From NCBI GenBank assembly GCA_902774395.1, contig CACYIK010000004.1:30932-94931 (forward strand): a DNA stretch of 64,000 nucleotides, written 5' to 3'. Below the pieces are notes generated by a model. That model did not search any database and had not been told where the DNA came from. It was given only the letters and a program-made list of their open reading frames with translations. Origin of the DNA: an uncultured Bacteroidota bacterium. Lineage in GTDB: Bacteria; Bacteroidota; Bacteroidia; Bacteroidales; P3. Numbering within the stretch: position 1 is the first letter of the stretch; each line of letters opens with the position of its first letter. Both the position numbers and the translations under genes were made by a program. Shown here piece by piece: positions 8,694 to 50,189 of the stretch.

Positions 8694-8800
8694 CACTGAT
8701 ACTCAATACCAACACCGTACCAACGACGTATCAACACCGTATCAACTCCGACCCAACACCGACCACAGTCGGAGATGATACGTTTTTGCCACGGTACTGA
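8694..8800. repeat. stutter-word hairpin element, copy 1 of a dispersed ~85-bp repeat (second copy 38656-38790)
   Basis: CACTGATACTCAATACCAACACCGTACCAACGACGTATCAACACCGTATCAACTCCGACCC... aligns at roughly 80% identity, same orientation, with 38656 onward. The right arm GTCGGAGATGATACG pairs with CGTATCAACTCCGAC. Confidence 0.8.
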
Positions 8801-8868
8801 CACGTCATTCACACCAATCTCTTCTTTCTCTTTTCGCGCACATTTCATTGAACGTTAATTGCCGTTAA

Positions 8869-9467
8869 TTATCCATCAATTGTCTGGGATTCAGCGTCGA
8901 CAACGACCAGTTTGCCCTGCATTCGTGGTATTTCCGCAATGCGCTGGTCAGAGCCAACTACAAGAATGTGGCAAAAGGCATCAGTCAAGACGGTCACTTT
9001 CTTGAACTCTTCTTCCAGAATCTCCTGATGGGTGAGAATAACGAGCTAAAGAACAGATACATGCTGGTGAACCCACCTGAAGAGTGGAAACAACCCACAA
9101 GCACCGATCAAGAACAGGACAAGCACCGTACAAGTACCGTACAAGTACCGAACAAGCTCGAGGATTTATTACACACAAATAATCCTGACATTGTAAGGCT
9201 CGTGATGGCTATTGGATGTCGGCAATTATCTGTGACACAAATGATGGAATCCATTGGATTGAAACATCGACCCACTTTTTGCAGAACTATCTCAATCCTG
9301 CCATTACCGATGGAAATATCTGTTTGTTATATCCAGACAAACCTCGCCATCCCCGCCAGAGATACCTGCTGACCGTGAAGGGGCAGATGCTGTATCGGGA
9401 ACTTACAAAACAATATCGCCCGACACCGGCAGCGGATTCTTCGCTAGATAAAGTCGGTTCTCGTTGA
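8869..9467 (+). pseudogene. 5'-truncated, frameshifted fic-family gene remnant with a C-terminal wHTH module
   Basis: The frame opens at 8869 without a start or the Fic core. It reads ...HSWYFRNALVRANYKNVAKGI...LSVTQMMESIGLKHRPTF, then shifts frame at a T5 run (9276-9280) to QNYLNPAITDGNICLLYPDKPRHPRQRYLLT. The tail is homologous to the C-terminus of the 15441-16883 protein (MTEIMDHIGMKHRYNVKHRYIDPLIESGFLEMTIPDKPNSRSQKY). Confidence 0.55.
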
Positions 9468-9500
9468 ATTCAAGATGCAAGTCGCTAACTAACTGGATTT

Positions 9501-10352
9501 TCATAATCTAAATATTTGCATCATGCGGATTAACGCTCGACGGAAGAGTGCGTAATTCCTGCTGTCTGACACATCAAGCAGGTCGTTCAGCAGGAGGCTT
9601 TCGTCTTCCTTATCCACCTCCTGTTGCAACATTTCGGCATAGTATTGGCGATTATGGGGAGAAAGCATTGCCCGCAGGTCGGAGGCAATCCACTCTGCAC
9701 CGGCCACGGTGACGTCGAATGTTGTCGCCTCGACATCGACCTCTTGCGGAAGGCCGTCGCGCGTGAGGGCGTATGCCACATAAACATTCTGCAGAATATA
9801 AACCATATCGGACGCATCCTTGAGGGTGCTGAGGTGGCGGTCACTCCATGTGTCCAGTTTCAGTAGGAACTGGCCGCTGAGCGATGCCATCCGGAACGAG
9901 AATTCCTCATCCACAGTCACCTTGTCGGCATGTTCCATCACCTCCGAAAAGCAACGCACCGACATCACAGGCGACCCCTCAGGAGGCCAAGCAATCATCC
10001 CGTTGTGCTCCACCTCCCCAAACGGCACAATGTCCACCTCATAGTGGTTTTGCCCTTGCGGTCCCACATAGTAGAACCGTTGGCGTTCGGAAGCTTTAAC
10101 GAAATAGTTCTGCAACAGCAACTGTGAGAGGTGCTCATACTGACTCCAATCGTCCAACGCCACAGCCACATCGAGGTCGAGCGTACGTCGGGGATTATTG
10201 CCGACATTCAGCAATCTCATGGCGATATCGCGTGCGGCAGCCCCCACCACATAAACCTCCTCTCCGAGCGCCGCATAGCACTCCGACAGCGCCTGCAGCG
10301 TCTCCACCAGCAACTCGTTCTTCAACGTTTCTTTCTTTATCGAATACTCCAT
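9501..10352 (-). CDS. nucleotidyltransferase-domain protein, candidate toxin partner of the upstream AbiEi-like gene
   Basis: 283 aa. Pol-beta-type NTase motif VVGAAARDIAMRLLNVGNNPRRTLDLDVAV (G-x-A/S...DxD). Starts 3 nt after the stop of the 10356-10940 gene. Confidence 0.55.
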   Translation of the reverse strand: MEYSIKKETLKNELLVETLQALSECYAALGEEVYVVGAAARDIAMRLLNVGNNPRRTLDLDVAVALDDWSQYEHLSQLLLQNYFVKASERQRFYYVGPQGQNHYEVDIVPFGEVEHNGMIAWPPEGSPVMSVRCFSEVMEHADKVTVDEEFSFRMASLSGQFLLKLDTWSDRHLSTLKDASDMVYILQNVYVAYALTRDGLPQEVDVEATTFDVTVAGAEWIASDLRAMLSPHNRQYYAEMLQQEVDKEDESLLLNDLLDVSDSRNYALFRRALIRMMQIFRL

Positions 10353-10355
10353 ATC

Positions 10356-10940
10356 TCAATAACCAATAACCTTTATAATTCTCTCTGCGGCTTCGCGGCA
10401 GCGGTCGTTGCCCATCGCCAGCAAGTCGGCATACACCACCACAGGCGGGGTGCCCGCCTCGTCCCAGAACTTGCGGTAGACGTATATCTCGCCGTCGGCC
10501 TTCGGAATCATCCGACCAGTGGCTATCAGCGCATTGGCGTTGTCGGAAACGTAGACATCCCAACGTTCTGGCTGTAGGTAGTCATCCAATAAAGCAGCTG
10601 CAGGCTCCCCTCCCCAACTGACATTCTCCGGCATGCGTATGTCACGCCAGCACTCCTTTACCTGAGGTGTAAGAAACGTGAATCGAGCAACAAAGAAACG
10701 CTCTTTGAGCCCGTCGGCATAGGCTCGTGTCCATCGGTCGAGCAGAGATGTCCGTTTCCTCAGCAGGCGTTTTTTGCCGTCCTCCACGACGTAACCCTTC
10801 TCCATCAGGCTCTGCATGACATTATTTACCGACCCAACAGAGACACCTGCCGCCGCAGCCAGCTGCCGGTATCTTAAATTAGTGTTTGACTTATCTTGCA
10901 ACAACCTGAAAACAACCTGAAATTCTGCTTTATGCATCAT
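10356..10940 (-). CDS. AbiEi-like winged-helix transcriptional regulator / type IV antitoxin candidate
   Basis: 194 aa. N-terminal wHTH (LRYRQLAAAAGVSVGSVNNVMQSLMEKGYV). The C-terminal part (LLDRWTRAY...WGGEPAAALL...VVVYADLLAMGNDRCREAAERI) matches my recollection of AbiEi antitoxin C-domains. Confidence 0.55.
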   Translation of the reverse strand: MMHKAEFQVVFRLLQDKSNTNLRYRQLAAAAGVSVGSVNNVMQSLMEKGYVVEDGKKRLLRKRTSLLDRWTRAYADGLKERFFVARFTFLTPQVKECWRDIRMPENVSWGGEPAAALLDDYLQPERWDVYVSDNANALIATGRMIPKADGEIYVYRKFWDEAGTPPVVVYADLLAMGNDRCREAAERIIKVIGY

Positions 10941-10967
10941 AATTCTTAATGTTTATCCCACCTATTT

Positions 10968-11021
10968 TGTTCATTTAATACATTGTGTTCAAAATAATTG
11001 AACAAAAACAATTATTGAACA
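10968..11021. promoter_or_regulatory. nested palindromic operator candidate upstream of the AbiEi-like gene
   Basis: Four hexamer half-sites: TGTTCA (10968-10973), TGTTCA (10986-10991), TGAACA (10999-11004), TGAACA (11016-11021). The inner pair forms GTTCAAAATAATTGAAC. The site lies 28-80 nt upstream of the ATG at 10940 (minus strand). Confidence 0.4.
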
Positions 11022-11260
11022 ATATCGATGCAAAGATACACATTTTCTTTAATATAGCAAAAAAAATATCGTCATATAAAGAAAGTGTCGTGTTTTTTTA
11101 ATTTTGTTTATCACATTTTTATCTGTTTTCGTAAATCTTTCTACCCATAAAGTATGGAGATTGCGGAATTGTTACATGCTTGCCGCATGTTTTTTTTGCC
11201 TCCTCCGACGGGGCTCCAAAATTAAATTTGGCGGTTCCAGATAATCTTTGTATCTTTGCA

Positions 11261-11268
11261 GTTTGAAA
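11261..11268 (+). promoter_or_regulatory. Bacteroidota -7 promoter box (TAnnTTTG) for the type I R-M operon
   Basis: TATCTTTGCA about 30 nt upstream of the hsdR ATG at 11298. Confidence 0.5.
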
Positions 11269-11297
11269 ATGAATAATCGAATTCAAATATTACGCTG

Positions 11298-14003
11298 ATG
11301 ACACCGGAAGAGAAGGCTAGAGTTAAGATAGACCAGATGTTTGAGGACGCTGGCTGGAAGGTGGTGGATAGGGATTTCTATTCGCCAACCCTTACAGCTG
11401 CAGCTATTCGAGAAGGCCTTATGAACGGTAATCGAGAAGCCGACTACTTCCTGTTTATCAACGGTATGGCCGTAGGTGTGTTGGAAGCGAAACGTAAAGA
11501 GGTGGATGTAACCACGACTATTGTATGCGAACAGGCAGAACTATATGCCCGTGGTGTCCCCAATTGTTATAAGGCTTACTCTCGACCTCTCCCTATCATC
11601 TATCAGTCAAACGGCGAAGAAACATACTTCCGTGATTTCCGCGATAAAGAAGGCGAACTAGTAGAAACCGATCGCATCTATACTCCGAAAGAGATTGTCA
11701 AAATGCTGGGTATAGACGACCCCTACGCCGGTTTGCCTGATTTAAAAAGAAAAGGGCTGCGCGATTGTCAGTATGAGGCTATCCGCGAATTGGAAAGCAG
11801 TTTCCGCGCAGGTCAAAAAAAAGCCTTGATAGTGTTGGCTACAGGGGCGGGCAAGACTTACACCGCCTGTATGGCCGCCTATCGCTTTCTGGCTTTCACT
11901 CCGGTGAAACGTATCCTTTTCCTGGTCGACCGAAACAATCTTGGCAAACAGGCAGAAGGAGAGTTTGGAATGTTCCGCCTGACTGAAAATGGCGACCCGT
12001 TCAACACCATCTTTACGGTGGATCGCCTGAGGTCTGCCAAAGTGCCGTCGGACAGCAATGTGGTCATCTCCACCATACAACGCCTGTTCTCTCTTCTCAC
12101 AGGTAAGGAGATAGTAGATAATGATGACGACGATGAAGACACCGCCACAGAAGAAGTACAGTTGCCGGGAAACATCACGATTCCACCAGATTTCTTCGAC
12201 CTGATTATAATCGACGAATGCCATCGTTCCATCTATGGCAATTGGAAGAAAGTGTTGGATTACTTCCAAACAGCCAAAATGATAGGGCTGACGGCGACCC
12301 CTGTCCCCGAAACAAAGGCCTTTTTCAACAATAACATTGTTGTCAATTACACGCTTGAACAATCCATCGTGGACGGCGTGAATGTAGATGCCCGCGTTTA
12401 TCGTATCAAGACAGAGGCCACAGAGAATGGTGGCGCTATCTTGATAGGCGACAAACTGAGACGGATGACACGATATACAGGCAAGGTGGAAACCATCCGC
12501 AACGAAGAGTCGAAGAACTACACAAAAGAGGAACTGAACCGCAGCATTATCAATCCGGCACAAATCAAGCTCGTGCTGGAAACATATCGCGATACTGTCT
12601 ATACTGAGATGTTCACCGACCCTCAGCGTGAGCCGAATATGGATTATCTGCCCAAGACACTCATTTTCGCGCTGAACGAAATCCATGCCAACAATATCGT
12701 GACGATTGCAAAGGAAGTGTTTGGACGGACAGACGACAAGTTTGTGCAAAAGATTACATACTCCTCGGGCGACAGCAACGAGTTAATCCGTCAGTTTCGC
12801 AACGACAAGGAATTCCGCATAGCAGTCACCTGCACATTGGTGGCAACGGGCACGGATGTGAAACCGCTCGAAGTGCTGATATTCATGCGCGATGTGGCAT
12901 CCGAGCCGCTTTGTATCCAGATGAAAGGTCGCGGCGTGCGCACCATAGGCGACGACCAGCTGCGCAACGTCACCCCCAATGCCTTCAGCAAGGATTGTTT
13001 CTTCCTCGTAGATGCCGTAGGCGTAACCGAGAGCCAAAAGACTGTCACAAGTCCAGGCAATGGTGAAACCGAGCAAAATATCACGCTGAAACGGTTGCTG
13101 GAGCTGCTGACTCACGGCAACGTGAACGATGACTATCTGCGCTTGATTGCCGCCAAACTCGCGCGTATCTACAACAAGTGTACCGACAAACAGCGAGAGG
13201 AGTTTGAAAGAATGGCCCACAGCGGTATGCAGGAAATCTCGGCTGCCATCTTCGACGCTTTGGAGAAAAACACGTTGCCTCCATACGAAAGCATCGATGA
13301 GCCGAATTTTGAACGTAAAGCGTTGGTGGCTCCGCTGACCCATCATCCCGAGGCGCGTCAGTTTCTGCTTATCCTTGCGGCCGGTTTTGTGGAAACACTT
13401 ATGCCTGGCGAAGACCAGCTGATATCAAAAGGATTCTCGCAAGAGGAGGCAAAAGAGCTCACTTCGGCATTTGAGAAATACTGCGAGGAACATCAAGACG
13501 AGATTGAGGCACTTCGAATGATTTACAACAACGAGGGGGAGCCTCTGACCTACTATATCCTGAAAGACTTGGAGAACAAGCTGAAGATGGCCAACAATCG
13601 CTTCCAGTCGTCCCGCATCTGGAACTCGTATGCCATTGTAAGTCCTCAAGCTGTGAAGAAGCATACCACCAAGGAGGAGAAAGAGGCGCTCACCAATATC
13701 ATTCAGCTGGTGCGTTTCGCCAACCATCAGATAGAGAAACTGGAGAGCCTTTACCCATTGGCTCAGCAGCGTTTCAACCTCTGGTATGGTCAGATGCAGC
13801 GCACAGTGACCGAGTCTCAGATAGCCATCATCCGGCAGATAGTGGATTATATCGCTTCCAACGGAGCCTGCACCATCAAGGATATTATCGAGGACGACAG
13901 AAACCGTGCGGCCCAGCTCATCAATGCCTTCGGAGGGAAGGAGCAGGCCGACGAAGCCCTCGTGTCGCTCTCCAAATTCTTACTTTACAGAAAAACAGCA
14001 TAA
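11298..14003 (+). CDS. hsdR: type I restriction endonuclease subunit R
   Basis: 901 aa. N-terminal nuclease-like region (READYFLFINGMAVGVLEAKR). SF2 helicase motifs (LATGAGKT, IIIDECHRS, GLTATP, ATGTDV, QMKGRGVR). Confidence 0.93.
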   Translation: MTPEEKARVKIDQMFEDAGWKVVDRDFYSPTLTAAAIREGLMNGNREADYFLFINGMAVGVLEAKRKEVDVTTTIVCEQAELYARGVPNCYKAYSRPLPIIYQSNGEETYFRDFRDKEGELVETDRIYTPKEIVKMLGIDDPYAGLPDLKRKGLRDCQYEAIRELESSFRAGQKKALIVLATGAGKTYTACMAAYRFLAFTPVKRILFLVDRNNLGKQAEGEFGMFRLTENGDPFNTIFTVDRLRSAKVPSDSNVVISTIQRLFSLLTGKEIVDNDDDDEDTATEEVQLPGNITIPPDFFDLIIIDECHRSIYGNWKKVLDYFQTAKMIGLTATPVPETKAFFNNNIVVNYTLEQSIVDGVNVDARVYRIKTEATENGGAILIGDKLRRMTRYTGKVETIRNEESKNYTKEELNRSIINPAQIKLVLETYRDTVYTEMFTDPQREPNMDYLPKTLIFALNEIHANNIVTIAKEVFGRTDDKFVQKITYSSGDSNELIRQFRNDKEFRIAVTCTLVATGTDVKPLEVLIFMRDVASEPLCIQMKGRGVRTIGDDQLRNVTPNAFSKDCFFLVDAVGVTESQKTVTSPGNGETEQNITLKRLLELLTHGNVNDDYLRLIAAKLARIYNKCTDKQREEFERMAHSGMQEISAAIFDALEKNTLPPYESIDEPNFERKALVAPLTHHPEARQFLLILAAGFVETLMPGEDQLISKGFSQEEAKELTSAFEKYCEEHQDEIEALRMIYNNEGEPLTYYILKDLENKLKMANNRFQSSRIWNSYAIVSPQAVKKHTTKEEKEALTNIIQLVRFANHQIEKLESLYPLAQQRFNLWYGQMQRTVTESQIAIIRQIVDYIASNGACTIKDIIEDDRNRAAQLINAFGGKEQADEALVSLSKFLLYRKTA

Positions 14004-15434
<1,431 letters not shown>

Positions 15435-15440
15435 ACCAAT

Positions 15441-16883
15441 ATGATAACAAAAGAGGAACTGCGGGAATTACTGCACAGCACGGAAACATATAGAGTGGAA
15501 CGCACCACCTCGACAGGTGATATGGATAAGTTTCAGGAAGCCATCTGTGCGTTCTCGAATGATTTGCCCAATTCACGCAAGAATGGTTATCTTATTATAG
15601 GAGCATACGATAATGGGAAGTTGTCTGGCTTGAAAGTGACTGACGACCTGCTGAAGAAGATTGCCTCCATCCGTTCCGATGGCAATATTCTTCCGTTACC
15701 GATGATGTCTGTCGAACGCTTTGAATTTCCGGAAGGAGATCTTCTTGTGGCCGAGGTATTGCCATCGCTTCTTCCCCCCGTTCGTTACCGTGGACGGACA
15801 TTTATTCGCATAGGCCCTCGTCGAGATATTGCAACGGAAGCTGAGGAGAGAATACTATTAGAGCGTAGGACTTCATATATGGCCACCTTCGATGCAATGC
15901 CCTGTTTGGGAGCATCGATAAAAGACATTGACACCGAATATATAAAGAACGACTATCTCCCTCAAGTTGTTGATCCAGACTTGCTGGCCACCGACAAACG
16001 GGATTTGAAGGAACAACTGTCCGCCATCCATCTGTATGATCTCGAACACGACTGTCCCACAAATGCTGCCATCATCCTTTTTGGCAAGAATCCGCAATAC
16101 TATATGCACGGATGTTATGTCCAATATGTACATTTTGCAGGAATAAACAATGGTGGCGAAATATTGAACGAGAAGCAGATAAAAGGGTGCCTGTGTAGAA
16201 TGTTGCCTCAATTGGAGAGTTTTGTCCGTGACGCCGTCGTGACATCCCGTCCGGTACCCATTGGTATGTTGCGCGAGCAAACCGTCTTCAATTATCCAGA
16301 GTTGGCATTAAGAGAGTTGCTGATGAACGCCTGTATGCACAGGGATTACCAGTCGAATATGCCAATCCGTCTCTACCAGTATGACGACCGCATAGAAATA
16401 CTCAATGCTGGAGGACTCTATGGCGAGGCGAGGCCCGAGAACTTCCCGACGGTAAACGACTATCGTAATCCCATCATTGCCGAAGCTATGCGAGGGCTCA
16501 AATATGTCAATATGTTCAACCGTGGTATTGAGCGTGTTAAAACCATGTTCCAAGAAAACGGGAATCCGGAACCCTCATTCAAAGTCGATAAGATTACTGC
16601 TTTCGAGGTCGTGGCCAAACCGACTTTATCACTCAACTTAGTCACTGATAAAGAAAAAGTGACTAAGTCAGTGACCAAGATGACGGAAAAGGTGAATGAT
16701 ATTATTGCTTTCTGTTCCGTTCCTCGGAGTATGACCGAGATAATGGATCATATAGGCATGAAACACCGTTATAATGTGAAGCATAGATACATCGACCCTT
16801 TGATTGAAAGTGGTTTCTTGGAGATGACCATACCCGACAAACCAAATAGCAGAAGTCAAAAGTACAAGAGGGCATTAACTTAG
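15441..16883 (+). CDS. AlbA_2 (Schlafen-like) + HATPase_c_4 ATP-binding protein with a C-terminal wHTH module ('RecG-like' putative regulator)
   Basis: 480 aa. N-terminal AlbA_2-like region (ETYRVERTTS...EAICAFSNDLPNSRKNGYLIIGAYDNGKLSGL). Central region ELALRELLMNACMHRDYQSN...IEILNAGGLYG. C-terminal wHTH shared with the fic remnant. Embedded between hsdM and hsdS, 6 nt after hsdM. Confidence 0.75.
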   Translation: MITKEELRELLHSTETYRVERTTSTGDMDKFQEAICAFSNDLPNSRKNGYLIIGAYDNGKLSGLKVTDDLLKKIASIRSDGNILPLPMMSVERFEFPEGDLLVAEVLPSLLPPVRYRGRTFIRIGPRRDIATEAEERILLERRTSYMATFDAMPCLGASIKDIDTEYIKNDYLPQVVDPDLLATDKRDLKEQLSAIHLYDLEHDCPTNAAIILFGKNPQYYMHGCYVQYVHFAGINNGGEILNEKQIKGCLCRMLPQLESFVRDAVVTSRPVPIGMLREQTVFNYPELALRELLMNACMHRDYQSNMPIRLYQYDDRIEILNAGGLYGEARPENFPTVNDYRNPIIAEAMRGLKYVNMFNRGIERVKTMFQENGNPEPSFKVDKITAFEVVAKPTLSLNLVTDKEKVTKSVTKMTEKVNDIIAFCSVPRSMTEIMDHIGMKHRYNVKHRYIDPLIESGFLEMTIPDKPNSRSQKYKRALT

Positions 16884-16930
16884 TCACTTAACTTAGTCAC
16901 TAATCAAAAAAAGTGACCAAGTTAAAATGG

Positions 16931-18343
16931 ATGTTTATGGACACAAAGAAACTACGCCAGAAGATACTCGACCTCGCCATTCGTGGCAAACTCGTCCCCC
17001 AAGACCCCAACGACGAGCCTGCCTCTGTATTGCTGGAGCGCATCCTTGCTGAGAAAGAACGCCTCATCAAGGAAGGAAAGATAAAACGAAGCAAGAAGAC
17101 GGCTACAAATGATGATATTGAAGCGCCCTTTGAGATTCCTGAAAGTTGGGAGTGGACAAACATCGAAGCTGTTGCTGAATCCAATATAGGATTGACATAT
17201 AAACCATCTGATATTACATTAAATGGAATACCAGTTTATCGCTCAAACAACATTCAGAATAAAGAGATAGTTTTAACAGACATTGTAAGAGTAAAAACTG
17301 ATATTCAAACAAAACAATATCTCAATGAGGGTGATTTGCTAATATGTGCTAGAAATGGAAGTCGAAATCTTGTAGGTAAATGTGCTCTTATAAAGCACCT
17401 CACTGAGCCAACTTCTTTTGGGGCTTTTATGGCAGTTTGTCGAAGTGAGTTCAACGAATGGATTTTTCTATTGCTTAATTCAGAATACTTTAATACATAT
17501 TTGGACGAATCAAATTCAACTGCTATAAATCAGGTGACTCAGAAAATGCTCCTTGCATTTCAATTACCATTTCCACCTAAAAAAGAACAAAAGCGTATTT
17601 ATAATGAGGTTACTAAATGGTTTTCTGTGATTGACGAATTGGAGAGCAACGAGGGTGATTTGTTGAAGGCTATAGATAAAGCAAAGTCCAAAATCCTCGA
17701 CCTCGCCATTCACGGTAAACTTGTACCCCAAGACCCCAACGACGAACCCGCCATTGAACTCTTAAAGCGCATCAACCCAAAGTTTGAACCTTGTGATAAT
17801 GAACTCGACGACACCCATCTTCCAGATAATTGGTGCTGGACAACACTAGGCAATATCTTTAACCATAATACAGGGAAGGCATTAAATAAGTCTGATTCGC
17901 AGGAAGGATCATTGCTGCCATATATTACGACGTCTAATGTATATTGGAATCGGTTTGATTTATCTGAGATAAAGAAGATGTTCTTTAAAGACTCAGAAAT
18001 TGACAAATGTACAATAACAAAAGGCGACTTGTTGGTTTGTGAGGGTGGCGATATAGGACGTTCTGCAATATGGAACTATGATTACGATATTTGTATTCAA
18101 AACCACATCCATAGGCTACGTGCAAAAGGCGATGTCAGCCATCTCCTGTATTTATACGTCCTTATGTTTTACAAATGGACAGACAGAATACGGGGGAATG
18201 GCATTGGTCTTCAAGGATTGTCATCTAGGCTATTAGACAAAATCATCGTACCATTACCTCCATATCAGGAGCAACTCCGCATCGTATCAAAGATAGAAGA
18301 ACTCTTTGCCGCCCTTAACAGTATCAAAGAATCCCTAGAATAA
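16931..18343 (+). CDS. hsdS: type I R-M specificity subunit S
   Basis: Two AT-rich target-recognition domains separated by duplicated conserved helices KILDLAI(R/H)GKLVPQDPNDEPA (DNA 16961-17023 and 17690-17751). The ORF track starts at GTG 16913; the first ATGs are 16931 and 16937. Confidence 0.9.
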   Translation: MFMDTKKLRQKILDLAIRGKLVPQDPNDEPASVLLERILAEKERLIKEGKIKRSKKTATNDDIEAPFEIPESWEWTNIEAVAESNIGLTYKPSDITLNGIPVYRSNNIQNKEIVLTDIVRVKTDIQTKQYLNEGDLLICARNGSRNLVGKCALIKHLTEPTSFGAFMAVCRSEFNEWIFLLLNSEYFNTYLDESNSTAINQVTQKMLLAFQLPFPPKKEQKRIYNEVTKWFSVIDELESNEGDLLKAIDKAKSKILDLAIHGKLVPQDPNDEPAIELLKRINPKFEPCDNELDDTHLPDNWCWTTLGNIFNHNTGKALNKSDSQEGSLLPYITTSNVYWNRFDLSEIKKMFFKDSEIDKCTITKGDLLVCEGGDIGRSAIWNYDYDICIQNHIHRLRAKGDVSHLLYLYVLMFYKWTDRIRGNGIGLQGLSSRLLDKIIVPLPPYQEQLRIVSKIEELFAALNSIKESLE

Positions 18344-18347
18344 ACTC

Positions 18348-19479: not shown

Positions 19480-19925
19480 GTGTATGTGATAATGAAAGTG
19501 AAATGCGTTTATTTGCAAATGTGTGAATCTTGAACAATCGATTGCTTAAACTGAGGTCGGCGACAATGTGGAGCCAATATTTGAATGCGTTAATGTGTAA
19601 ATGCGTAAATGTGTGAGTAAACATAAAAATTACATATTTGGCTTCTATAGAGATAATTGTAAGAGAGGGATCTAATAAAAAAGGGTATTGGATTATAGCT
19701 GATTTACAATAAATGTTACAATAAATGTTACAATAAATGCTACAATAAATAATACATATCATCTATGAGACTTATCGATACTTGAATGCGATATAAACCT
19801 AAACATTTATATAAGTTAATGCGTGAACGTTATAACGAATGTGTAAATGCGATAATGTGTGAATGAGTAAATCTTGAATAATCGATTGCTTGAGCTGAGG
19901 TCGGCGACAATGTGGAGTCAATGAG
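19480..19925. repeat. non-coding repeat region: duplicated ~55-bp core with stutter-word arms, plus a 12-bp x4 tandem array
   Basis: Core AATCTTGAACAATCGATTGCTTAAACTGAGGTCGGCGACAATGTGGAGCCAAT (19526-19578) recurs as AATCTTGAATAATCGATTGCTTGAGCTGAGGTCGGCGACAATGTGGAGTCAAT (19870-19922). Both copies are preceded by AATGCGT/AATGTGT word runs. TACAATAAATGT x4 lies at 19705-19755. Confidence 0.8.
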
Positions 19926-33362: not shown

Positions 33363-33367
33363 TAAAA

Positions 33368-38655: not shown

Positions 38656-38790
38656 CACTGATACTTAACACCAACACCGTACCAACTCCGTATCAAGTCC
38701 GACTCAACTCCGACCCAAGTCCGACTATGGTAGGAGTTGATACGGTGTTGGTAGGGTGTTGGTAGGTGTTTGATAGGGTATTGGTACGGT
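38656..38790. repeat. stutter-word hairpin element, copy 2 of the dispersed repeat seen at 8694-8800
   Basis: The left arm CACTGATACTTAACACCAACACCGTACCAACTCCGTATCAAGTCCGACTCAACTCCGACCC pairs with the right arm GGAGTTGATACGGTGTTGGTAGGGTGTTGGTAGGTGTTTGATAGGGTATTGGTACGG. Confidence 0.85.
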
Positions 38791-41195: not shown

Positions 41196-41906
41196 TTATT
41201 GTAATACTGTATGCAAGATTTCGTGGCTGTGGAAATGTGAGAAGCCGCTGAGGTGGAGGTGGTAGTAGGTGATGAGGGCGTTGATGAGCGCGGTGCGCTC
41301 ATCAAGTGGAGAGTGGAGAGTGGAGAGTGGAGAGTTAAGGTAGTGGTGGAGGGTTTCGGAGAGGTGGGGGGAAAGGGTGGTCTCGGTGGAGGCGGAGACG
41401 AAGCGGCCTTCTTGAAGATCGAAGAGGGGCTCGCGGGTACAGTAGTTATCGAAAGGCTCGATGCCGAGGTGACGGGCAACGGTGAGGAGGAAGGTTATGG
41501 GAAGTGATGAGTGAGGAGTGGGGAGTGAGGAATTTATGGATTCGACGTAGTCGAAGAGGGCGGGCATGGGTTCGGATTCACGGAGGGCTTTATAGAGCAC
41601 TTCCGTCATGAAGAAACGCAGAGCGTTTTGTGTGGGTGAGTAACTGAGTGGCTGAGTGGCTGAGTGACTGAGTAACTGAGAGAGTTCTTTGACGTAGTTG
41701 AGGTCGGTCTTTTCGTTGTTGTAGACCACCATATCGAGGCATGAGAGGGGCTGCAGGAGGTTCTGTTTTACGCGGCCTCCCCTACCCCTTACACCTTTTA
41801 TTATATAGGAGCGCACCCCGAGCTGCCGCGTGAAGACCTTCACCACTACCGAGGACTCTGAGTAGGGAGTGGTGTGGAGTACGAGGCCACGGGTGGAGAG
41901 AAGCAT
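41196..41906 (-). CDS. recO: DNA repair protein RecO
   Basis: 236 aa. The N-terminal OB-fold sequence TRGLVLHTTPYSESSVVVKVFTRQLGVRSYIIKGVR is typical of RecO. Contains three in-frame word arrays. Confidence 0.8.
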   Translation of the reverse strand: MLLSTRGLVLHTTPYSESSVVVKVFTRQLGVRSYIIKGVRGRGGRVKQNLLQPLSCLDMVVYNNEKTDLNYVKELSQLLSHSATQPLSYSPTQNALRFFMTEVLYKALRESEPMPALFDYVESINSSLPTPHSSLPITFLLTVARHLGIEPFDNYCTREPLFDLQEGRFVSASTETTLSPHLSETLHHYLNSPLSTLHSPLDERTALINALITYYHLHLSGFSHFHSHEILHTVLQ

Positions 41907-41958
41907 TGTTTAATGATGAATGATGAGTGATGAGTGATGAATGATAAGTGATAAACGA

Positions 41959-44310
41959 CTATCTGATGATAAGGATCTTGGCCACGGAGCGGTTGTCACC
42001 TTGGCTATCGGAAGCGAAGACGTAGTAGACGCCCGAGGCCACCTTTTCGCCGCTGGCGGTGCGACCGTCCCAGATGGCCTGACCACCGTTGGCGGTGGTG
42101 GTATAGACGGTATGTCCGGCAGCATCGGTGATATGCACCAAGCCGTTGCGGGTGAAGCCCTTGATGGCGATAGGACCGTCATAGTCGGGCTTTACGGGAT
42201 TGGGGAAAGCATAGACCTTGTCGAGCGGCGAGCTGACGGCATAGGTGGCGGTGCCGCGGTAGACCTGCAAGCCACGGTCGGTGCCAATATAGACCTCGCC
42301 GGTGCGCTCGTTGATACCCAGAGCGACAACCTTATCGGAATAGAGCGGGCTGTTGCTGGCAGTGAAATGCGCAAGCTGATCGAGGCCGTTGGCGGAGATG
42401 AGGTAGAGTCCCCCGCTGGCTGTGCCCACCCACTTGCGGTTAGCGCCGTCGACAGCGATGGCGGTGATACTCTCGTAAGCCATGAGGTATTCCGAGAACT
42501 CACCGTTGGTGATGGTGATGTTGCTGCAGTTCACCGGTGCATATTCTCCGTTACCGCCGTTGTTGAAAGCCTTGTAGCCGTCGTAGATAACCTTGATACC
42601 CTTGTTGGTGCCAATCCAGATGTTACCGTTATGATCCTGCAACAGGGCGGTGACGGCGTCGGTGGAGAGTTTGCTGCCGTTGTTGGGGTTGACTTTTGCC
42701 ATGTGGCTCACGCCGTCGTGGACATAGATGACGTTGCTGCGACCGCAGAACCACTTATAGCCTGTGACGCTGTCGCAGACAAGCTTGTCGACCTCGGGGG
42801 TAGTGACCATTGACATGGTGGGGAAACCCTTCCAGGTGCCGTCGGCACGACGGACAGCGAGGGCATGAGTGCTTTGGGAGTTGAGTATCCACAGGTCGCC
42901 ACGGAGGTCGAACTCCACCGCGCCGGTATTGAGACGGCTATAAGATCCCGAGCTGTAGGGTATCAGAGCGCCCTCCGTATTGGTGCTATTGTAGAGCGTC
43001 TGCACCTGGTTGTTGCGTATCGACACCACCCCATGTCCCCATAGGGCAGCCACGCTCTCATTGGTGTCGCGGGGATTGACAGCCACGTCGAGGAGGTCGC
43101 TAAGACCGTCGAGGAGACCATTGCTGCGGTCGAGAGAGGACCACCTTTGACCCACGGCGGTATACACATTGGGGGCGAGATAGGCACTGGCGTATGTCGG
43201 TGTATGGCCACCAGGGCAAAGCATCATACGATAGTTGAAAGGTACGAGACGGTAGACATTGTCGGCATTCGCGGGACCGGAAGGACGGTGGTATTCCTCT
43301 TCGCCGGAGGGATGAATGCCCACGATACCCTCCCATGGATGCGCCACCCATAGGATACCCTCGCGAGCGAAGGTGGCGTCGCGAGCCTCGAGGGTGCCCC
43401 AGTTGTAGGTGCTGTAGTCGTCAATGAGGGTAAACAACGTGTCGTAGACAAGCACATGGCCATCGGCGCACACCGCCACCTTGTCGGCGGAAGCCTGCAT
43501 GGCGTTCACAACACCACCCCAGCGCAGAAGGGAATAGGAGGAACCACGGCGGACAAGGAGCGAGCAATTATCGGGGTTGGAGGCGTAGCCGGCAACCAAA
43601 AGTTGTTGTGCAACGGGACAGAGCATGGCGACATTGAGGCTGTCGAGCCGGTGGTCGATATCCCAACGGTCACTGACGGAAGGGTGTTGTTCTGAGACGG
43701 AGAGCCGCTTCAAGCCCTCGCCGGTGGCGGCGAAGAGGCTGTCGGGCATGAAGGCGAGGTCGTAGACAGGCGTATAGGTGCCGCCGGCGCCGAGATACCA
43801 GGTCTCCTTGATTTCCTGACGGCGGACATCCACCACCACCACGCCAAAGCCTGTAGCCAGATAGGCGTTGCCGTTGGAGAAACGCACGTGATAGATGCTT
43901 TTGTCGCCAGAAATCTCGCTGCGTTTGATGTCGGAGAGGTTGTATGTACGGCCATCGATGAGCAGGTCGACATTGGAGTTATTGTAGGCCACCACAAGAC
44001 ATTGTGTAGCCTTGTCATAGCCTATTGTGGCGATACCGACATCGTTCAGTCCGTCTCCCTTGTCGAAAGTTGTCAGCGTGTGGTCGTCGAGGTCGTAGCA
44101 AAACACGCCGTCCAGGGCAGCAGCATAGATTCGGTCGCCGGCATCGACCACATGATTGACCAATGAATAGTCCAGACATCCGCGCCAGTGGCCAATGGCC
44201 GTCTGGGCAATTGCTGAATTGAAAATTGAAAATTGGAAAATGAAAAATAAACTTACACAGAGAATGCTGCGCAAGCAACTGACCACCGACCGCTGACGAA
44301 CAACTTTCAT
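41959..44310 (-). CDS. two-beta-propeller protein with a T9SS-type C-terminal domain (PorZ-like)
   Basis: 783 aa. Signal peptide, repeated propeller blades (WIGT/WVGT/IGTDRGL motifs), and a C-terminal Ig-like domain AFPNPVKPDYDGPIAIKG...SGVYYVFA...AKILIIR. Size and architecture match PorZ. Not verified. Confidence 0.5.
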   Translation of the reverse strand: MKVVRQRSVVSCLRSILCVSLFFIFQFSIFNSAIAQTAIGHWRGCLDYSLVNHVVDAGDRIYAAALDGVFCYDLDDHTLTTFDKGDGLNDVGIATIGYDKATQCLVVAYNNSNVDLLIDGRTYNLSDIKRSEISGDKSIYHVRFSNGNAYLATGFGVVVVDVRRQEIKETWYLGAGGTYTPVYDLAFMPDSLFAATGEGLKRLSVSEQHPSVSDRWDIDHRLDSLNVAMLCPVAQQLLVAGYASNPDNCSLLVRRGSSYSLLRWGGVVNAMQASADKVAVCADGHVLVYDTLFTLIDDYSTYNWGTLEARDATFAREGILWVAHPWEGIVGIHPSGEEEYHRPSGPANADNVYRLVPFNYRMMLCPGGHTPTYASAYLAPNVYTAVGQRWSSLDRSNGLLDGLSDLLDVAVNPRDTNESVAALWGHGVVSIRNNQVQTLYNSTNTEGALIPYSSGSYSRLNTGAVEFDLRGDLWILNSQSTHALAVRRADGTWKGFPTMSMVTTPEVDKLVCDSVTGYKWFCGRSNVIYVHDGVSHMAKVNPNNGSKLSTDAVTALLQDHNGNIWIGTNKGIKVIYDGYKAFNNGGNGEYAPVNCSNITITNGEFSEYLMAYESITAIAVDGANRKWVGTASGGLYLISANGLDQLAHFTASNSPLYSDKVVALGINERTGEVYIGTDRGLQVYRGTATYAVSSPLDKVYAFPNPVKPDYDGPIAIKGFTRNGLVHITDAAGHTVYTTTANGGQAIWDGRTASGEKVASGVYYVFASDSQGDNRSVAKILIIR

Positions 44311-46213: not shown

Positions 46214-47251
46214 TTAGAATTTCTTGTTAAACACCTTGTAGAACGACTGAACCGACAAGGAATTCTCATCCCACTGGTTCTGCGCCGACACCTCGTTGAC
46301 ATAAAGCAGGGCCTCATCGCGCGTGTCGATGCTGTTCAGGCGAAGGATAAAGTCGTTGTAAGCCTTCATATTGTTGTGGAACAACTCGGACATGAAGCTG
46401 AACTTGTCATTGATGTTGATTACCGTACGAAGGTCTAAGACTTTCTTGCCCAGTCCCACTTCACTATCCACACGCAGTTCGCCGCTTTCCACGCCGCCCA
46501 GCTTCTCACCCAGCGTGCGCACCGTGGGTTTCTCGACGACAGGATTCTTCAGGTAGTCGAGCAGCGAAGCCTGGGTGCCTGACTTGGAGTCGCTGGCAGC
46601 AACGGACTCCTGGACGGGTTCGGGTGCAGGTTCAGGAGCGGGTTCGGGTGCGGGAACAGGTTCGGGTTCAGGAGCGGGTTCGGGTTCTGGCTCCGGTTCG
46701 GGTTCAGGCGTAGCTTCAATAATCACTTCGTCAAACAACAGGCCGTTACCGTTTCCCTCCAAGTCTTCCATCTGAGGCATCTCCACGGGCTCGGGTTCGG
46801 GAGCGGGTGCAGGCTCAGGAACAGGCTCGGGTTCAGGTGCGGGCTCGGGCTCCGGTTCAGGTTCCGGTTCAGGTTCCGGCTCGGGCTCGGGTTCCGGCTC
46901 GGGAGCAGGTGCGGGTTCGGGTTTAACCATAGGTTCGGGGGCGTCCGTAGGCTCAGCCTCCACGTTTTCCACACCCATGGCGGCCATCGTCGCCATCACG
47001 GTCGACGACAGTATTTCGTCGTCAGGCATAACAAGCGTCTCCATCCGATGTGCCTCGTCACCCTCTTTGGTCTTTCCGCCGTCCACTTTCTCTTCTCCCA
47101 TACGTAAAGCCACATCATACAAACGGCGAAGGTCCTCAAGCAAGAGGTCTCTCTCGATGAGGCTCACCTGTCCCTCATGCGCCACAATGCGGTTGGCAAT
47201 GGCACACAACTTCTGCATACCCTCTGTCAGTTCTTTGACACTGTTTTTCAT
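46214..47251 (-). CDS. hypothetical protein with two long Pro-Glu ([12 protein letters not shown]) linkers
   Basis: 345 aa. Structured N- and C-terminal domains are separated by hexanucleotide GGTTC(G/A)-type repeat tracts at about 46610-46720 and 46790-46925. Confidence 0.6.
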
Positions 47252-48138: not shown

Positions 48139-48892
48139 ATTCTTTCAATTTATTTATATACAATAATTTACTTTTAAACCGATTATGTTTTGCACCGGGG
48201 TCTGTCAACGATGTGCCGATACAATATTTGCTCATCCGTCGCGGCAGGATATGCATCTCATGAAGAGCTTTCTCTATGTCCGACATGGGGGCGCCCACCT
48301 CATGTTTCACTTCTATCACCAGCAAATGACTAATATCGGCATCGATACCTGTGGCACGATTATGGAACGAGATGCCGCTGTCGATGGTCACCCTTTCTTT
48401 CATCCCTTTATCCACCAGCGTAATACGTTCAAACCTATTCTCCAAGCATTCATGCAGCGACGCCACAGGATAGGGGGTTCGCTCATCAACGAAGTGCGCC
48501 ACCTCTGGGAGCTCCAGACAGCTGTCGAACAACGACACATCAATAGGTATGCGCACTTTCCGGGTCTTCTTCTTATTATCCTTATTCTTGATTTCGAAGA
48601 AGGTGGTGTCTGTCGAGCGATAGGTTCGCACCCGCAACTTCTGCCGATTGAGTTTCTTGTTGTGGTGCATGGTGTACATAGCCAAATCGGCGGTGTCGAA
48701 ATAGAGCGTGCGGTAAGGGGCAATGGGATTGTCGGCAATGTGTTGCACATAGTATTGTCCCGCCACCCGTTCCAGCAGTTCCTCCAGCTGGCAGATGGAA
48801 GCCATATACTTCTGATCCACACGATTCATCAGACGGACAGCTTTCATGTCGTCCAGTCCAATGGGGGCCATCTGTTTCAACACCGAGTTCAT
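48125..48892 (-). CDS. VTC-domain polyphosphate polymerase-like protein
   Basis: 255 aa. RVDQKY, Y..LYFDT, LRVRTYRSTDTTFFEIKNKDNKKKTRKVRI and LLVIEVK blocks are typical of VTC/triphosphate-tunnel domains. Confidence 0.7.
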   Translation of the reverse strand: MNSVLKQMAPIGLDDMKAVRLMNRVDQKYMASICQLEELLERVAGQYYVQHIADNPIAPYRTLYFDTADLAMYTMHHNKKLNRQKLRVRTYRSTDTTFFEIKNKDNKKKTRKVRIPIDVSLFDSCLELPEVAHFVDERTPYPVASLHECLENRFERITLVDKGMKERVTIDSGISFHNRATGIDADISHLLVIEVKHEVGAPMSDIEKALHEMHILPRRMSKYCIGTSLTDPGAKHNRFKSKLLYINKLKEYGTR

Positions 48893-48906
48893 GCTCTAAC
48901 CTAGAA

Positions 48907-49329
48907 CTACTTGTAGGAATACTCGAACGTCTTGGTAGTCTCCAACTTGCCGTTGGGCTTGTAGTTCAGTTGACGTTTCTTCGTACCATCGTCGTTATAC
49001 TCGAACTGTTTGATACGTACCACTTTGTTCTTGTCGTTATACTCCACCTGTTCCTTGCACTTGGTCGAGTTGCCCTCATAGCTGTAGGTCGTGCGCTTTT
49101 TCTGCCCATAGGAGGCATACTCTATCTCTTCTATCTTACGACCTTGCTCGTCGTATGTCACCATATTGTCCAGATAGGGGACAGTAGAGCCCGCACGGGT
49201 GTTCCATTCCTTGACCACAAGATTCTTCTTGCGCTCGCGCTTGCTAGGTTTGTCGTTTTGAGTCTGTGCCTCGGCAACGCCCATCAAACCTATCAGTCCC
49301 ATCAGACCTAATACTAAAATCTTTTTCAT
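48907..49329 (-). CDS. hypothetical small secreted protein
   Basis: 140 aa. The signal peptide MKKILVLGLMGLIGLMGVAEAQ is encoded by a word array. Followed by repetitive beta-hairpin-like KxxEYxYxxxG segments. Confidence 0.5.
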   Translation of the reverse strand: MKKILVLGLMGLIGLMGVAEAQTQNDKPSKRERKKNLVVKEWNTRAGSTVPYLDNMVTYDEQGRKIEEIEYASYGQKKRTTYSYEGNSTKCKEQVEYNDKNKVVRIKQFEYNDDGTKKRQLNYKPNGKLETTKTFEYSYK

Positions 49330-49343
49330 CTCTCTATAATACT

Positions 49344-50189
49344 TTAAAACGAGTAACTATATCCTATCACAAGCCAGCCCTTAAAACCCGATACACGTTC
49401 GTAGCTTTTCAACTTAGTACCCTCGGCATTGGCGTCGACCTCCTTGTCGGTCAACCAGTCGGCCAGCAGTGCCACCTCCAGTCGGTTTTCCTTATTCAGC
49501 CTATATTCCACTCCCAGGGCACCGCGCCAACGGTTGACATACCAGCCACTGAAACCGTCGAGGAACCAACCAGCCTCGCCAGTACGCGACCCCGCGTCGG
49601 TCACATAGTAGGTGCCGTCCCAGTTGGCTTTGATGACAGGCGCATTCATGGTATTGCGCATCTCCACATAGCCATACGGTTCCCAGCGTCGGAAGCCTTT
49701 GTATGTAAGTTTCAGGCGACTCTTGAGCATCCATGCCATGCGAGGTGCTTGGTATTCGTTCATTTGGCCCGAGCGGTAGGTACCCTGCACACGTTCTCTT
49801 AACGAGAGACTCCAGTCGCCAAAGCGGTAGGTGTAGGCCACATCAGCCATCAGCCTGTGACGCGGACTTTTAAAAGCCGAATCACTCGAGCTATAAGAGT
49901 TTATCATGGCATAGCCCAGCGACACCTTCAACTCTGGCGATATCTTGTAGCTCAACGACAACTGGCTCTGGAACCTGTCGAACGAAGCGAAATTATTATC
50001 CATCCACACTTGTTCCCTCAACGTCAGGTGCAGCCCCTTGGCGAGCTTTTTGTCGAACGACAACGACAGACGTCCACCCACCTCCGGGTCTAGGGTCACA
50101 TCCGTCTGAGCCCGAACAGCGCTCATCAAGCCCATAAGTCCCATCAGACCTATAATCAACGCTCTTTTCATAATTTCAACATTCATCAT
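49344..50189 (-). CDS. outer-membrane beta-barrel protein, DUF2490-like
   Basis: The signal peptide (alternative start MKRAL at 50171) is encoded by a word array. Alternating-hydrophobic strands, C-terminal YSYSF. Confidence 0.5.
   Translation of the reverse strand: MMNVEIMKRALIIGLMGLMGLMSAVRAQTDVTLDPEVGGRLSLSFDKKLAKGLHLTLREQVWMDNNFASFDRFQSQLSLSYKISPELKVSLGYAMINSYSSSDSAFKSPRHRLMADVAYTYRFGDWSLSLRERVQGTYRSGQMNEYQAPRMAWMLKSRLKLTYKGFRRWEPYGYVEMRNTMNAPVIKANWDGTYYVTDAGSRTGEAGWFLDGFSGWYVNRWRGALGVEYRLNKENRLEVALLADWLTDKEVDANAEGTKLKSYERVSGFKGWLVIGYSYSF

Follow-up and report, generated by a model that had tools for sequence, protein, structure and literature searches.

Long simple sequence repeats (LSSRs) are head-to-tail arrays of 5-11-nt units, most commonly heptamers, whose length and number exceed chance (Mrazek et al. 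2007, as summarised in passages of PMC4679880 and PMC4692102). The examples named in those passages include GGGAATC in Xanthomonas, GGGGAYT in Nostoc, the short tandemly repeated repetitive (STRR) sequences of Calothrix and Nostoc, and TAACTGA in the Beggiatoaceae (PMC4679880, PMC4692102). Inverted LSSR pairs able to form stem-loops are known in Xanthomonas (a passage of PMC4692102), a look-up in PMC3126725 gave nothing on hairpins of STRR sequences, and TAACTGA repeats had been noted earlier in five Bacteroidetes (passages of PMC4679880 and PMC4692102). Here we describe a population of short tandem arrays, often paired as hairpins, in a 64,000-nt stretch of an uncultured Bacteroidota bacterium (assembly GCA_902774395.1, contig CACYIK010000004.1, positions 30,932 to 94,931; hereafter, the window) and in related loci of its clade. 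No such repeats were described for rumen Bacteroidales in the literature that we searched.

Several other systems share features with these arrays. Rickettsia palindromic elements (RPEs) are palindromic DNA lying in frame within conserved proteins, at tolerant surface positions where they are translated, and belong to a few consensus sequences of 100-150 bp. Foldback (FB) transposons of Drosophila and its relatives have inverted arms made of short tandem sub-repeats, and are eukaryotic, kilobase-scale and transposase-associated. Quasipalindrome or template-switch mutagenesis and slipped-strand variable-number tandem repeats (VNTRs) yield adjacent reverse-complement copies and whole-unit indels, the known cases being rare and point-like. 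BrickBuilt consists of 20-odd-nt bricks in a defined, single-consensus MITE (miniature inverted-repeat transposable element). BrickBuilt occurs in Porphyromonas gingivalis and is characterised as a minisatellite inside a MITE (in part of PMC4596501). Repetitive extragenic palindromic (REP) sequences have stems of 5-13 bp, units of 20-40 nt and an unpaired GTAG or CGTC tag; according to the relevant passages of PMC3733652, GTAG REPs are not reported in Bacteroidetes.

The account that we favour, and consider somewhat probable, is that the arrays in this clade form by in-situ tandem duplication together with fold-back and ectopic copying, are filtered by selection, and exist alongside a separate 11-nt family. 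Chromosomes of these uncultured rumen Bacteroidales would continually create and remodel short-unit tandem repeats, and the generator, unusually active or selective as to sequence in this lineage, would be replication slippage combined with template switching of both the intra-strand (fold-back) and the ectopic kind.

A first-pass annotation, made from the letters of the window alone, had proposed a window-wide population of short degenerate tandem words. That observation is confirmed, and its interpretation is partly supported. Tandem Repeats Finder (TRF) returned 115 rows, and filtering (periods of 6-16, 3 or more copies, a score of 36 or higher) and merging of rows left 35 arrays, whereas 40 block-wise dinucleotide-preserving shuffles gave 0.1 +/- 0.3 arrays (maximum 1); the population is thus genuine and unusual. 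All of the example loci that had been listed are present, at the positions first given or a few bases away. Comparisons drew on about 1.3 Mb of fetched loci rather than whole genomes, and every source genome is a metagenome assembly, which would be compatible with a short-read assembly or sequencing artefact. However, over 14.4, 10.9 and 4.8 kb, contigs built from other samples with other assemblers match the window at 100% identity, arrays included, and the arrays are therefore not an assembly artefact. Open frames are kept across 92 coding cases, and orthologous arrays (in RecO, an S8 peptidase and a helicase) diverge in step with species divergence. We regard the chance of an artefact as negligible. 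No Rfam 15 covariance model matched at E <= 0.1 anywhere in the window, and no known structured RNA family was thus found. As the first-pass annotation had also held, the arrays are not CRISPRs: their units are contiguous, with no unique, similar-length spacers between them.

Relatives of the window's RecO protein came only from unclassified, uncultured Bacteroidales metagenome-assembled genomes (MAGs) of the rumen or gut, at 80% identity or less, and the placement in Prevotellaceae that had first been assumed is unsupported. The 56 loci related to the window, together with the window, held 390 filtered arrays in 1.04 Mb (3.75 per 10 kb), against 0.38 per 10 kb in seven distant outgroup loci under the same filter. 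For arrays of period 7, 8 or 11 only, the densities were 2.71 per 10 kb in the clade and 0.09 in the outgroups, and the density by species ranged from 0.5 to 14 arrays per 10 kb, L031, L002, L047 and the window species being examples of array-rich species and L019 and L026 of array-poor ones. Periods of 7 (131 arrays), 8 (61) and 11 (84) predominated in the clade loci over 9 (28) and 10 (10), heptamers being the commonest unit, as in LSSRs.

What had been taken for one population proved to be three, namely codon repeats (Class A), 7/8-nt arrays (Class B) and 11-nt palindromes (Class C), which differ in period, location, composition, loop size and chirality. Class A arrays (periods 6, 9 and 12) are nearly all coding and are ordinary codon repeats. 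In the window, they include 46615-46923 (PEPEPE), 23155 (poly-Gly) and 49282/50124 (GLM, in signal peptides); as a correction to the first-pass account, the first and last of these, along with 23069-23227, are codon-period protein repeats.

Class B arrays have periods of 7 or 8, as well as 7+8 = 15 and some of 9-10, and comprise about 4-5 units. About half lie within ORFs despite a period that is not a multiple of three (65 of 135 period-7 arrays are wholly inside ORFs); coding and intergenic counts across loci are only approximate, because the greedy ORF calls contain errors (for instance, the call at 33314-33721 is spurious, the true queD being on the minus strand). Heptamer words without G or C on one strand make up 76%, where 21% is expected, and alignment by expectation maximization gives the register K-R-D-R-A-G-T, with T at the last position in 91% and C essentially absent. 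Word diversity is high, with 68 canonical heptamer classes in 135 arrays. Nevertheless, the words are neither arbitrary nor different at every locus, as had been supposed: the vocabulary is restricted and clade-wide, the 11-nt words form genome-specific families, and several words recur (GAGTGACT, GTGGAGA, ATGATGA, GTAGTTAA, a KETGDK-coding word and ACCAACACCGT), with GTGGAGA, GGTGAAA, GAGTGACT and others reappearing at unrelated sites throughout the clade.

Class C arrays (period 11) are about 70% intergenic and form near-perfect palindromes, with arms of 23-58 nt (mostly 40-58) built of 4-5 tandem 11-mers and loops mostly of 0-6 nt. At periods 7, 8 and 11, the copy number shows a plateau at 3-5 units and then a cut-off; codon repeats, by contrast, decay about tenfold (geometrically) per added copy. 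Coding and intergenic arrays are equal in size and purity, and the expectation that coding arrays would be shorter or more degenerate was not borne out.

The first-pass annotation could assign the arrays to no described family, but an umbrella category exists in the LSSRs, with their 5-11-nt units and the inverted pairs of Xanthomonas. Like LSSRs, the window and clade arrays are head-to-tail repeats of 5-11-nt units, above chance in length and number and mainly of 7 nt, with a sporadic phylogenetic distribution, variation in length and sequence among close relatives (including whole-unit copy-number polymorphism between close strains) and occasional inverted pairs; the window array at 41632 contains GTAACTGA, which may be compared with TAACTGA. 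In contrast, a single word or a handful dominates each genome in the mainly intergenic Xanthomonas, Beggiatoa and STRR systems, while here many heptamer classes share a common register, about half of the arrays are in ORFs, arrays are fixed at about 4-5 units, hairpin chirality is strong, and there is a separate 11-nt palindromic family. The umbrella is known, then; the diverse but constrained vocabulary, the frequent in-frame copies, the fixed size and chirality and the 11-nt palindromic family set the present arrays apart.

Comparison of orthologous loci between strains revealed both presence/absence and copy-number changes, the arrays gaining and losing whole units. Over 16.7 kb at 98% nucleotide identity (loci L072/L073), every indel of at least 5 nt corresponds to one or more whole array units (-7, +10, -15 and -9 nt), and the pair L002/L003 likewise shows whole-unit changes, among them that of a single 11-nt unit within one Class C hairpin arm. 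Among helicase pairs of at least 97% identity (n = 108), indels of at least 4 aa are confined to four array sites. Such whole-unit indels are microsatellite or VNTR behaviour, contrary to the earlier view that the arrays are unlike microsatellites. Locus L067 has a plain GC-rich terminator at the position of two window arrays (including 23612) and arrays elsewhere where the window has none, and one spacer measures 150 nt with a hairpin in L009 and 30 nt in L018.

Class B arrays, along with their 9-10-nt relatives, arise in place via tandem duplication of a local word, and they can gain a reverse-complement copy a few tens of bases downstream, producing a hairpin with its purine-rich arm 5'. 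A pair of helicase alleles within one species, 99% identical, displays such a birth: a filled allele of 904 aa (P0064, locus L071) and an empty allele of 873 aa (P0054, locus L075). The empty allele, which is also found in several sister lineages, reads AGTGGAG AACGGAAC CTCACAGAC. The filled allele contains three copies of AGTGGAG, decaying 7-nt units, a unique loop, four copies of CTCTCCA with further units, and then CTCACAGAC. This 93-nt hairpin starts with the triplicated local S-G-E codons AGTGGAG, and its reverse-complement end abuts the ancestral CTCAC. Since AGTGGAG was triplicated from the empty allele, the word of the hairpin is the local S-G-E codon run. A second presence/absence polymorphism was seen at the first helicase site between P0046 and P0055/P0041 (at least 97% identity), where the protein sequence by itself suggests that the 26-aa segment PLPLSQGEGRLTQNGVDNSPLLGRGA is encoded by two small palindromes of the CTCCCC/GGGGAG type.

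The same pair of alleles bears on the possibility that all of the classes are non-autonomous mobile elements (of MITE, REPIN or foldback type), in which case a trans-acting transposase would recognise the sub-repeats of the arms, and one-armed arrays would be decayed halves. Birth from the local word left neither a target-site duplication, as expected of a MITE, nor a foreign terminus. The loop of the L071 hairpin has no other occurrence among the fetched loci, and Class B loops are unique in about 1.3 Mb, hence no full-length copies exist there. Pure transposition is thereby ruled out for Class B. At times, an array is copied to another site together with the unique sequence next to it. The positions of the window arrays are given below, with the strand where one was assigned.

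8694-8795: Class C copy 1, with 5' end CACTGATACTCAATACCAAC, five 11-nt units (ACCAACACCGT type) and a truncated right arm; intergenic, directly preceded by a terminator hairpin (8630-8677).
9097-9156, plus strand: 11-nt array ACAAGYACCGT x5.5, in frame in the linker of a short ORF before a Fic-like_C domain.
16623-16693, plus strand: inverted CTTAGTCACTGA / GTGACTAAGTCAGTGAC repeat in the linker of a Schlafen-AlbA/HATPase/Fic-like_C gene.
16875-16925: TTAACTTAGTCAC x2 and inverted GTGACCAAGTTAA, at the end of the same gene.
19584-19872: AATGCGTA, TTACAATAAATG x3.9 and AATGTGTA arrays, intergenic, beside a direct repeat of about 70 nt.
22354-22425: Class B hairpin of the 10-nt word AAAGACAAGA and its complement, in the LemA-TPM interval (-36.7 kcal/mol, z -9.1).
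23246-23314: GAGAATT x10, immediately 3' of the TPM stop codon; the 98% strain lacks one unit, and L067 has about 5 units, decayed.
23612-23681: 8-nt array GAGTTGCT/GAGTGACT/AAGTAGCA, with a terminator hairpin at its end.
23705-23773: CTAGGAnnnn x7, 5' of the NUDIX gene; an extra 10-nt unit in L072 and L074.
24124-24212, plus strand: Class B hairpin with two arms, TCAGTGA x5 / ACTAAAC x4, read in frame within NUDIX.
25030-25107, plus strand: Class B two-armed hairpin, GGTGAAA x4 / ACCTCTC x4, in frame at site 1 of the UvrD-like helicase.
26166-26202, plus strand: GGAGACA+GGAGATAA (7+8 = 15 nt, which encode ETGDK) x2.4, at helicase site 2; the 99% strain P0002/L072 is shorter by one unit.
26484-26516, plus strand: the 15-nt word GGAGACA+GGAGATAA x2.2, helicase site 3; one unit fewer in P0003/L074.
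33230-33361: hairpin of the 9-nt word GTAGTTAAAG and its complement, queE-queD spacer (z -4.5).
33710-33741: GTAGTTAA x4, the word of the 33230 hairpin, in the next spacer along (queD-queC).
36426-36464: GTAAAAG x5.6, at the end of an SDF transporter gene, adjoining a perfect 22-bp bidirectional terminator.
38656-38790: Class C copy 2, with the 5' end of copy 1, five 11-nt units, a 4-nt loop and five inverted units, between the S8 stop and the urocanase promoter (-63.3 kcal/mol, z -5.8).
39767-39800, minus strand: GAGTGACT-type 8-nt array, in frame in the S8 peptidase, encoding FTQSPSHSATPS.
40740-40779, minus strand: GAGTGACT/GAGTGGCT x5, in frame in S8, encoding SATQPLSHSANQSP; common to only 3 of 43 orthologues.
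40903-40946, minus strand: ATGATGA-type array in S8, a species-specific +10-aa insertion.
41117-41142, minus strand: GTGGAGA x3.7, S8 signal peptide.
41305-41335, minus strand: GTGGAGA x4.4 (100% match), RecO loop 3, encoding NSPLSTLHSPL.
41503-41531, minus strand: GAGTGAGG-type array, RecO loop 2.
41632-41680, minus strand: GAGTGGCT/GAGTAACT x5-6, RecO loop 1.
41914-41952: ATGATGA/GTGATGA x5.6, PorZ-RecO spacer.
44217-44246, minus strand: GAAAATT x4.3, PorZ signal peptide, encoding FFIFQFSIFNS.
46615-46923, minus strand: Class A codon repeats of the PEPEPE type, with periods 6/12/36; an ordinary linker of low complexity.
49280-49308, minus strand: Class A 9-nt codon repeat (GLM)n, signal peptide; the word recurs at 50124-50155 in the adjacent gene.
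50175-50202: TTCAACA x3.3, spacer 5' of a DUF2490 gene.

The arrays of 7, 8 and 11 nt are unevenly placed, with 23 in the central 42 kb and none in 1-8500 and 50250-64000 (22 kb); gene content or a different residence time of the DNA could account for the array-free outer parts. Copying is visible in the NUDIX element of the window, which matches the element at helicase site 1 of L069 at 94% over 35 nt, aperiodic loop included. In L070, one array with an AAGACAnATG tail stands at two helicase sites and a two-armed version at a third, and the KETGDK word occupies differing helicase sites in differing lineages. Identical words were not significantly clustered at short range (48 observed vs 42 expected; 49 of 500 permutations; p about 0.1).

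Inverted partners had been claimed for many of the arrays. Six pairs were confirmed (8714/8770, 22354/22398, 24124/24184, 25032/25082, 33230/33323 and 38670/38719), with folding z-scores of -3.3 to -9.3 against shuffles. The arms of 22354/22398 are 28 nt long and 93% complementary; corresponding values are 26 nt and 88% for 25032/25082, 22 nt and 95% for 33230/33323, and 45 nt and 80% for 38670/38719. The AT-rich pair 23245/23331, made by the GAGAATT array and its partner (23339-23379), did not hold up, since it folds no better than shuffles (z about -1). Orientation is highly regular. The purine-rich arm is 5' in 18 of 21 Class B pairs, and in 20 of 21 hairpins of 7-10-nt words G outnumbers C on the 5' arm, matching the polarity of bidirectional terminators. 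Hairpins of 11-nt words have the opposite chirality, with T>A in the 5' arm in 15 of 16. Within genes, the antisense strand folds more stably than the sense strand by 14-15 kcal/mol (-50.4 vs -36.4 kcal/mol at 25025-25115 in the helicase; -38.6 vs -23.8 at 24115-24220 in NUDIX), the differences between arms being transitions that give G-U pairs only on that strand. In architecture, FB transposons are the closest analogue, with arms that are also arrays of tandem sub-repeats; the likeness is one of architecture alone and implies neither homology nor mobility. BrickBuilt is likewise a Bacteroidales element with tandem units and inverted repeats, but its bricks are larger and it is not reported inside ORFs.

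The two Class C copies of the window (8694 and 38656) share the end CACTGATACTYAAYACCAAC, for which the chance expectation is 0, and about 80 nt. A metagenome scan for this end gave nine matches, of which three were chance matches without arrays, and located four distinct sites with unrelated upstream flanks in one 98%-related strain; at least two of the four follow terminator hairpins. Copies share the left arm and terminus and not the right ends, the right arms being shorter, and a mirror-image end on the right arm was absent in the copies examined. No transposase was found beside the four copies examined, whose neighbours are ordinary housekeeping genes. Sharing of 11-nt words is 58-95 times more frequent inside a genome than across genomes. 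In 26 of 40 species, the 350 nt downstream of the S8 gene contain an array of 11-nt period, and each species has a word of its own. Concerted evolution within genomes and repeated insertion at a preferred site are both possible, and both leave room for a trans-acting partner; the conserved position and period combined with species-specific words suggest such a partner, a transposase or a binding protein. Class C may spread by a trans-acting transposase or by gene conversion.

Many dispersed copies, mostly downstream of genes, are a REP/REPIN property that only Class C shares (at least four sites in one strain, and two copies in several 20-kb loci), and its genome-specific intergenic palindromes form hairpins of about 100-135 nt, a REPIN-like size. 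Some copies are intragenic, notably in repair genes, a location reported for REPs too. In contrast, Class C arms of 23-58 nt, mostly 40-58 nt in 4-5 tandem 11-mers, do not fit the short imperfect palindrome of a REP, and on stem length we reject REP membership for Class C, in line with the first-pass view that the arrays are not classical REPs or bacterial interspersed mosaic elements (BIMEs). Many 11-mers contain GTAG, and CTAC...GTAG bounds some elements; the window family, whose end is CACTGATACT, appears to lack an unpaired terminal GTAG/CGTC tag, and no gene for a REP-associated tyrosine transposase (RAYT) was seen near the Class C copies examined. Nested Class C elements were observed in L036 (3473-3590, 13119-13203) and L027 (13117-13221), with inner 11-mers ACTGAAGAACT and outer 11-mers GGGCTCCGTAG that contain GTAG and run on past the main palindrome.

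A mobile-element explanation for all arrays draws on Class C, whose 5' end is sharp and conserved, whose copies (four or more) are dispersed among unrelated flanks, whose words are specific to the genome and which sits 3' of terminators. The Class B element present in different genes of different species and the S8 insertion at 40903, which has no local seed, fit it as well. The 4-5 units per arm resemble the multiple transposase-binding sites of transposon ends, and the GTAG held by many 11-mers is the RAYT cleavage motif (PMC3733652). Weighed against the L071/L075 birth, the unique Class B loops, the lack of an adjoining transposase or mirror-image right terminus at the Class C copies examined, arms 3-10 times the length of REP stems and the absence of reported GTAG REPs in Bacteroidetes, this explanation seems to us unlikely.

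The constancy of Class C raises a different possibility, that arrays and hairpins are selected cis-elements, either terminators, RNA-stability hairpins or phased binding arrays for a species-specific DNA- or RNA-binding protein. In those 26 of 40 species, position, period and palindromy 3' of S8 are kept while the word changes, and dispersed copies within a genome share a word, as expected from co-evolution with a trans factor. Eleven base pairs are about one turn of the DNA helix, which would suit phased binding. The folds are very stable, and Class B hairpins have the polarity of bidirectional intrinsic terminators and are often at gene ends. However, about half of the 7/8-nt arrays are inside ORFs of unrelated housekeeping proteins, presence varies within species, and L067 has an ordinary terminator at a window array site. 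Furthermore, the polarity of Class C is opposite to that of a terminator, its hairpins are without a 3' U-run, and no Rfam model matched. We therefore judge a selected cis-element to be improbable as the general explanation.

Returning to in-situ formation under a selection filter, such a filter is seen in proteins. Arrays that persist are those tolerated by selection, in spacers, terminator regions, signal peptides and surface loops, where they are in frame and stop-free. Pfam matches and translation confirmed the earlier claim of in-frame arrays within conserved proteins, namely NUDIX, the UvrD-like helicase, the S8 peptidase, RecO and PorZ. In RecO, three arrays fill variable loops between conserved helices, and the word and length of each loop vary by species. 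The helicase (120 homologues of 853-945 aa, 71-99% identical) has three permissive sites with lineage-specific arrays or hairpins, and array-free relatives keep short ancestral loops there. This gene (24330-27038, plus strand) encodes a UvrD/REP helicase fusion, conserved across the clade, with an RNase_T/DEDDh exonuclease (aa 513-677) within UvrD_C. The NUDIX protein of array-free relatives has 165 aa; that of the window has 182 aa, with 33 aa encoded by the hairpin standing in place of a 16-aa loop. The S8 site at 40903 is otherwise near-invariant in 43 orthologues (ALATEE in most), and the word inserted there is unrelated to the ancestral sequence of the site. Given this insertion without a local seed, and one element common to NUDIX and the helicase of another species, purely local stutter is not the whole story.

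A 7-nt repeat is read through all three frames, and coding arrays bear the mark of this. The sense strand is stop-free in 82 of 92 coding arrays and pyrimidine-rich in 65 of 92. Taken in the pyrimidine-rich orientation, 91% of coding but 46% of intergenic words have no stop in any frame; taken in the purine-rich orientation, 41% and 16% have none. The second unit of the helicase hairpin is GGTTAAA, at the exact phase where GGTGAAA would give an in-frame TGA. Because sense strands are stop-free and a unit variant avoids a stop, the inserts are almost certainly translated and would persist only where they are compatible with the ORF and structurally tolerated; spliced or untranslated inserts are unlikely on the same grounds. 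The first 40 residues are enriched in coding arrays (19 of 92), which points to signal peptides as favoured sites.

The analogy to RPEs that had been drawn at first holds for in-frame palindromes at tolerant positions of conserved proteins. It fails for the one shared 100-150-bp consensus, as the loops here are unique, short words in tandem make up the arms, and local sequence gave rise in place to at least one element.

Among the neighbouring features, a defence island of low GC (0.40-0.50) occupies 9501-19445 and includes an AbiEii-like gene, type I restriction-modification (R-M) genes HsdR/HsdM/HsdS and AbiH, with the Schlafen-AlbA/HATPase_c_4/Fic-like_C gene inserted between HsdM and HsdS. 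Upstream of window position 20333, the 98% strain L072 carries another R-M/Mrr set. The direct repeat of about 70 nt, AATCTTGAAYAATCGATTGCTTRAGCTGAGGTCGGCGACAATGTGGAG, is found at the island's edge (19528-19580 and 19872-19920), each copy preceded by AATGYGT arrays, and it may be an island boundary or att-like repeat. Two paralogous Fic-like_C ORFs (8968-9372 and 15441-16883) each have an array in the linker just upstream of the domain, the 11-nt array at 9097 and the GTGACTAAG inverted repeat at 16623. A conserved Lys/Asn-rich ORF of 45 aa, MGINANKKVKRRKVRINGNKNSTNNWGITAAGWNAVHKAIINAED (23467-23604, plus strand), has no Pfam family in precomputed annotations, is syntenic in the TPM-NUDIX interval of L065, L067, L069, L070 and L072, and has a Bacteroidetes-type promoter box, TATCTTTG, upstream. 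Finally, 36460-36507, between the convergent SDF transporter and urocanase genes, is a perfect 22-bp inverted repeat flanked by A- and T-runs, a textbook bidirectional terminator and not an array.

The expected products of template switching and VNTR slippage are seen here, but at hundreds of loci per genome and with fixed periods, and several regularities count against in-situ formation by slippage and copying as we favour it. Plain slippage predicts neither the sharp preference for periods of 7, 8 and 11, nor the plateau at 3-5 units with its cut-off, nor the restricted K-R-D-R-A-G-T vocabulary that excludes C, nor the near-absolute and opposite chirality of the two hairpin classes. Coding arrays are as long and pure as intergenic ones, which is unexpected under frequent single-unit slips because such slips shift the frame. 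Moreover, only a single clean birth event has been reconstructed at the DNA level, and the lack of significant short-range word clustering leaves local template switching unsupported as the copying route. Taken together, the fixed periods, array size and chirality suggest more than generic slippage.

A dedicated enzyme is possible on this evidence, the survey being one of loci and not of whole genomes. A clade-specific activity that writes repeats and fold-back copies at nicks or breaks, for which a template-reiterating polymerase, a reverse transcriptase or a primase-linked activity would be candidates, could itself set period, unit number and chirality. It would accommodate the fixed periods, the 4-5-unit plateau, the conserved register (AG before T, C excluded), the near-absolute chirality and the clade-restricted distribution. 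Yet no candidate gene was found in the examined loci, the word of the reconstructed birth was local rather than externally supplied, and most strain differences are explained by ordinary VNTR-type unit changes, for which reasons we hold such an enzyme to be quite improbable.

More broadly, and only tentatively, the arrays could be the footprint of a clade-specific, sequence-selective repeat-writing process, whether an unusual property of the replisome or repair machinery or a dedicated enzyme. As a similarly speculative extension, that process would write a 7-, 8- or 11-nt word about 4-5 times over and follow it with a fold-back copy of fixed polarity, at any place in the chromosome and even in essential ORFs. 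If true, this would be a mutational or mobile mechanism not described before, continuously making new peptide segments and hairpins. A mechanism shared across phyla would then be indicated by the AGT register that these arrays have in common with cyanobacterial STRR (CCCCAGT, CAACAGT) and with the TAACTGA of Beggiatoa, whose reverse complement is TCAGTTA.

With about 2.7 arrays in every 10 kb, hundreds of such loci would be expected in a 3-Mb genome. Such an array load affects MAG assembly, gene calling (through spurious ORFs and shifted starts), protein-family alignments and strain typing in rumen metagenomes. Several regularities point to a generating activity, possibly a specific one, and both a birth event and the selection filter are directly visible. 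The clade is thus a natural system for the origin of short tandem and inverted repeats and for the entry of new peptide segments into conserved proteins.

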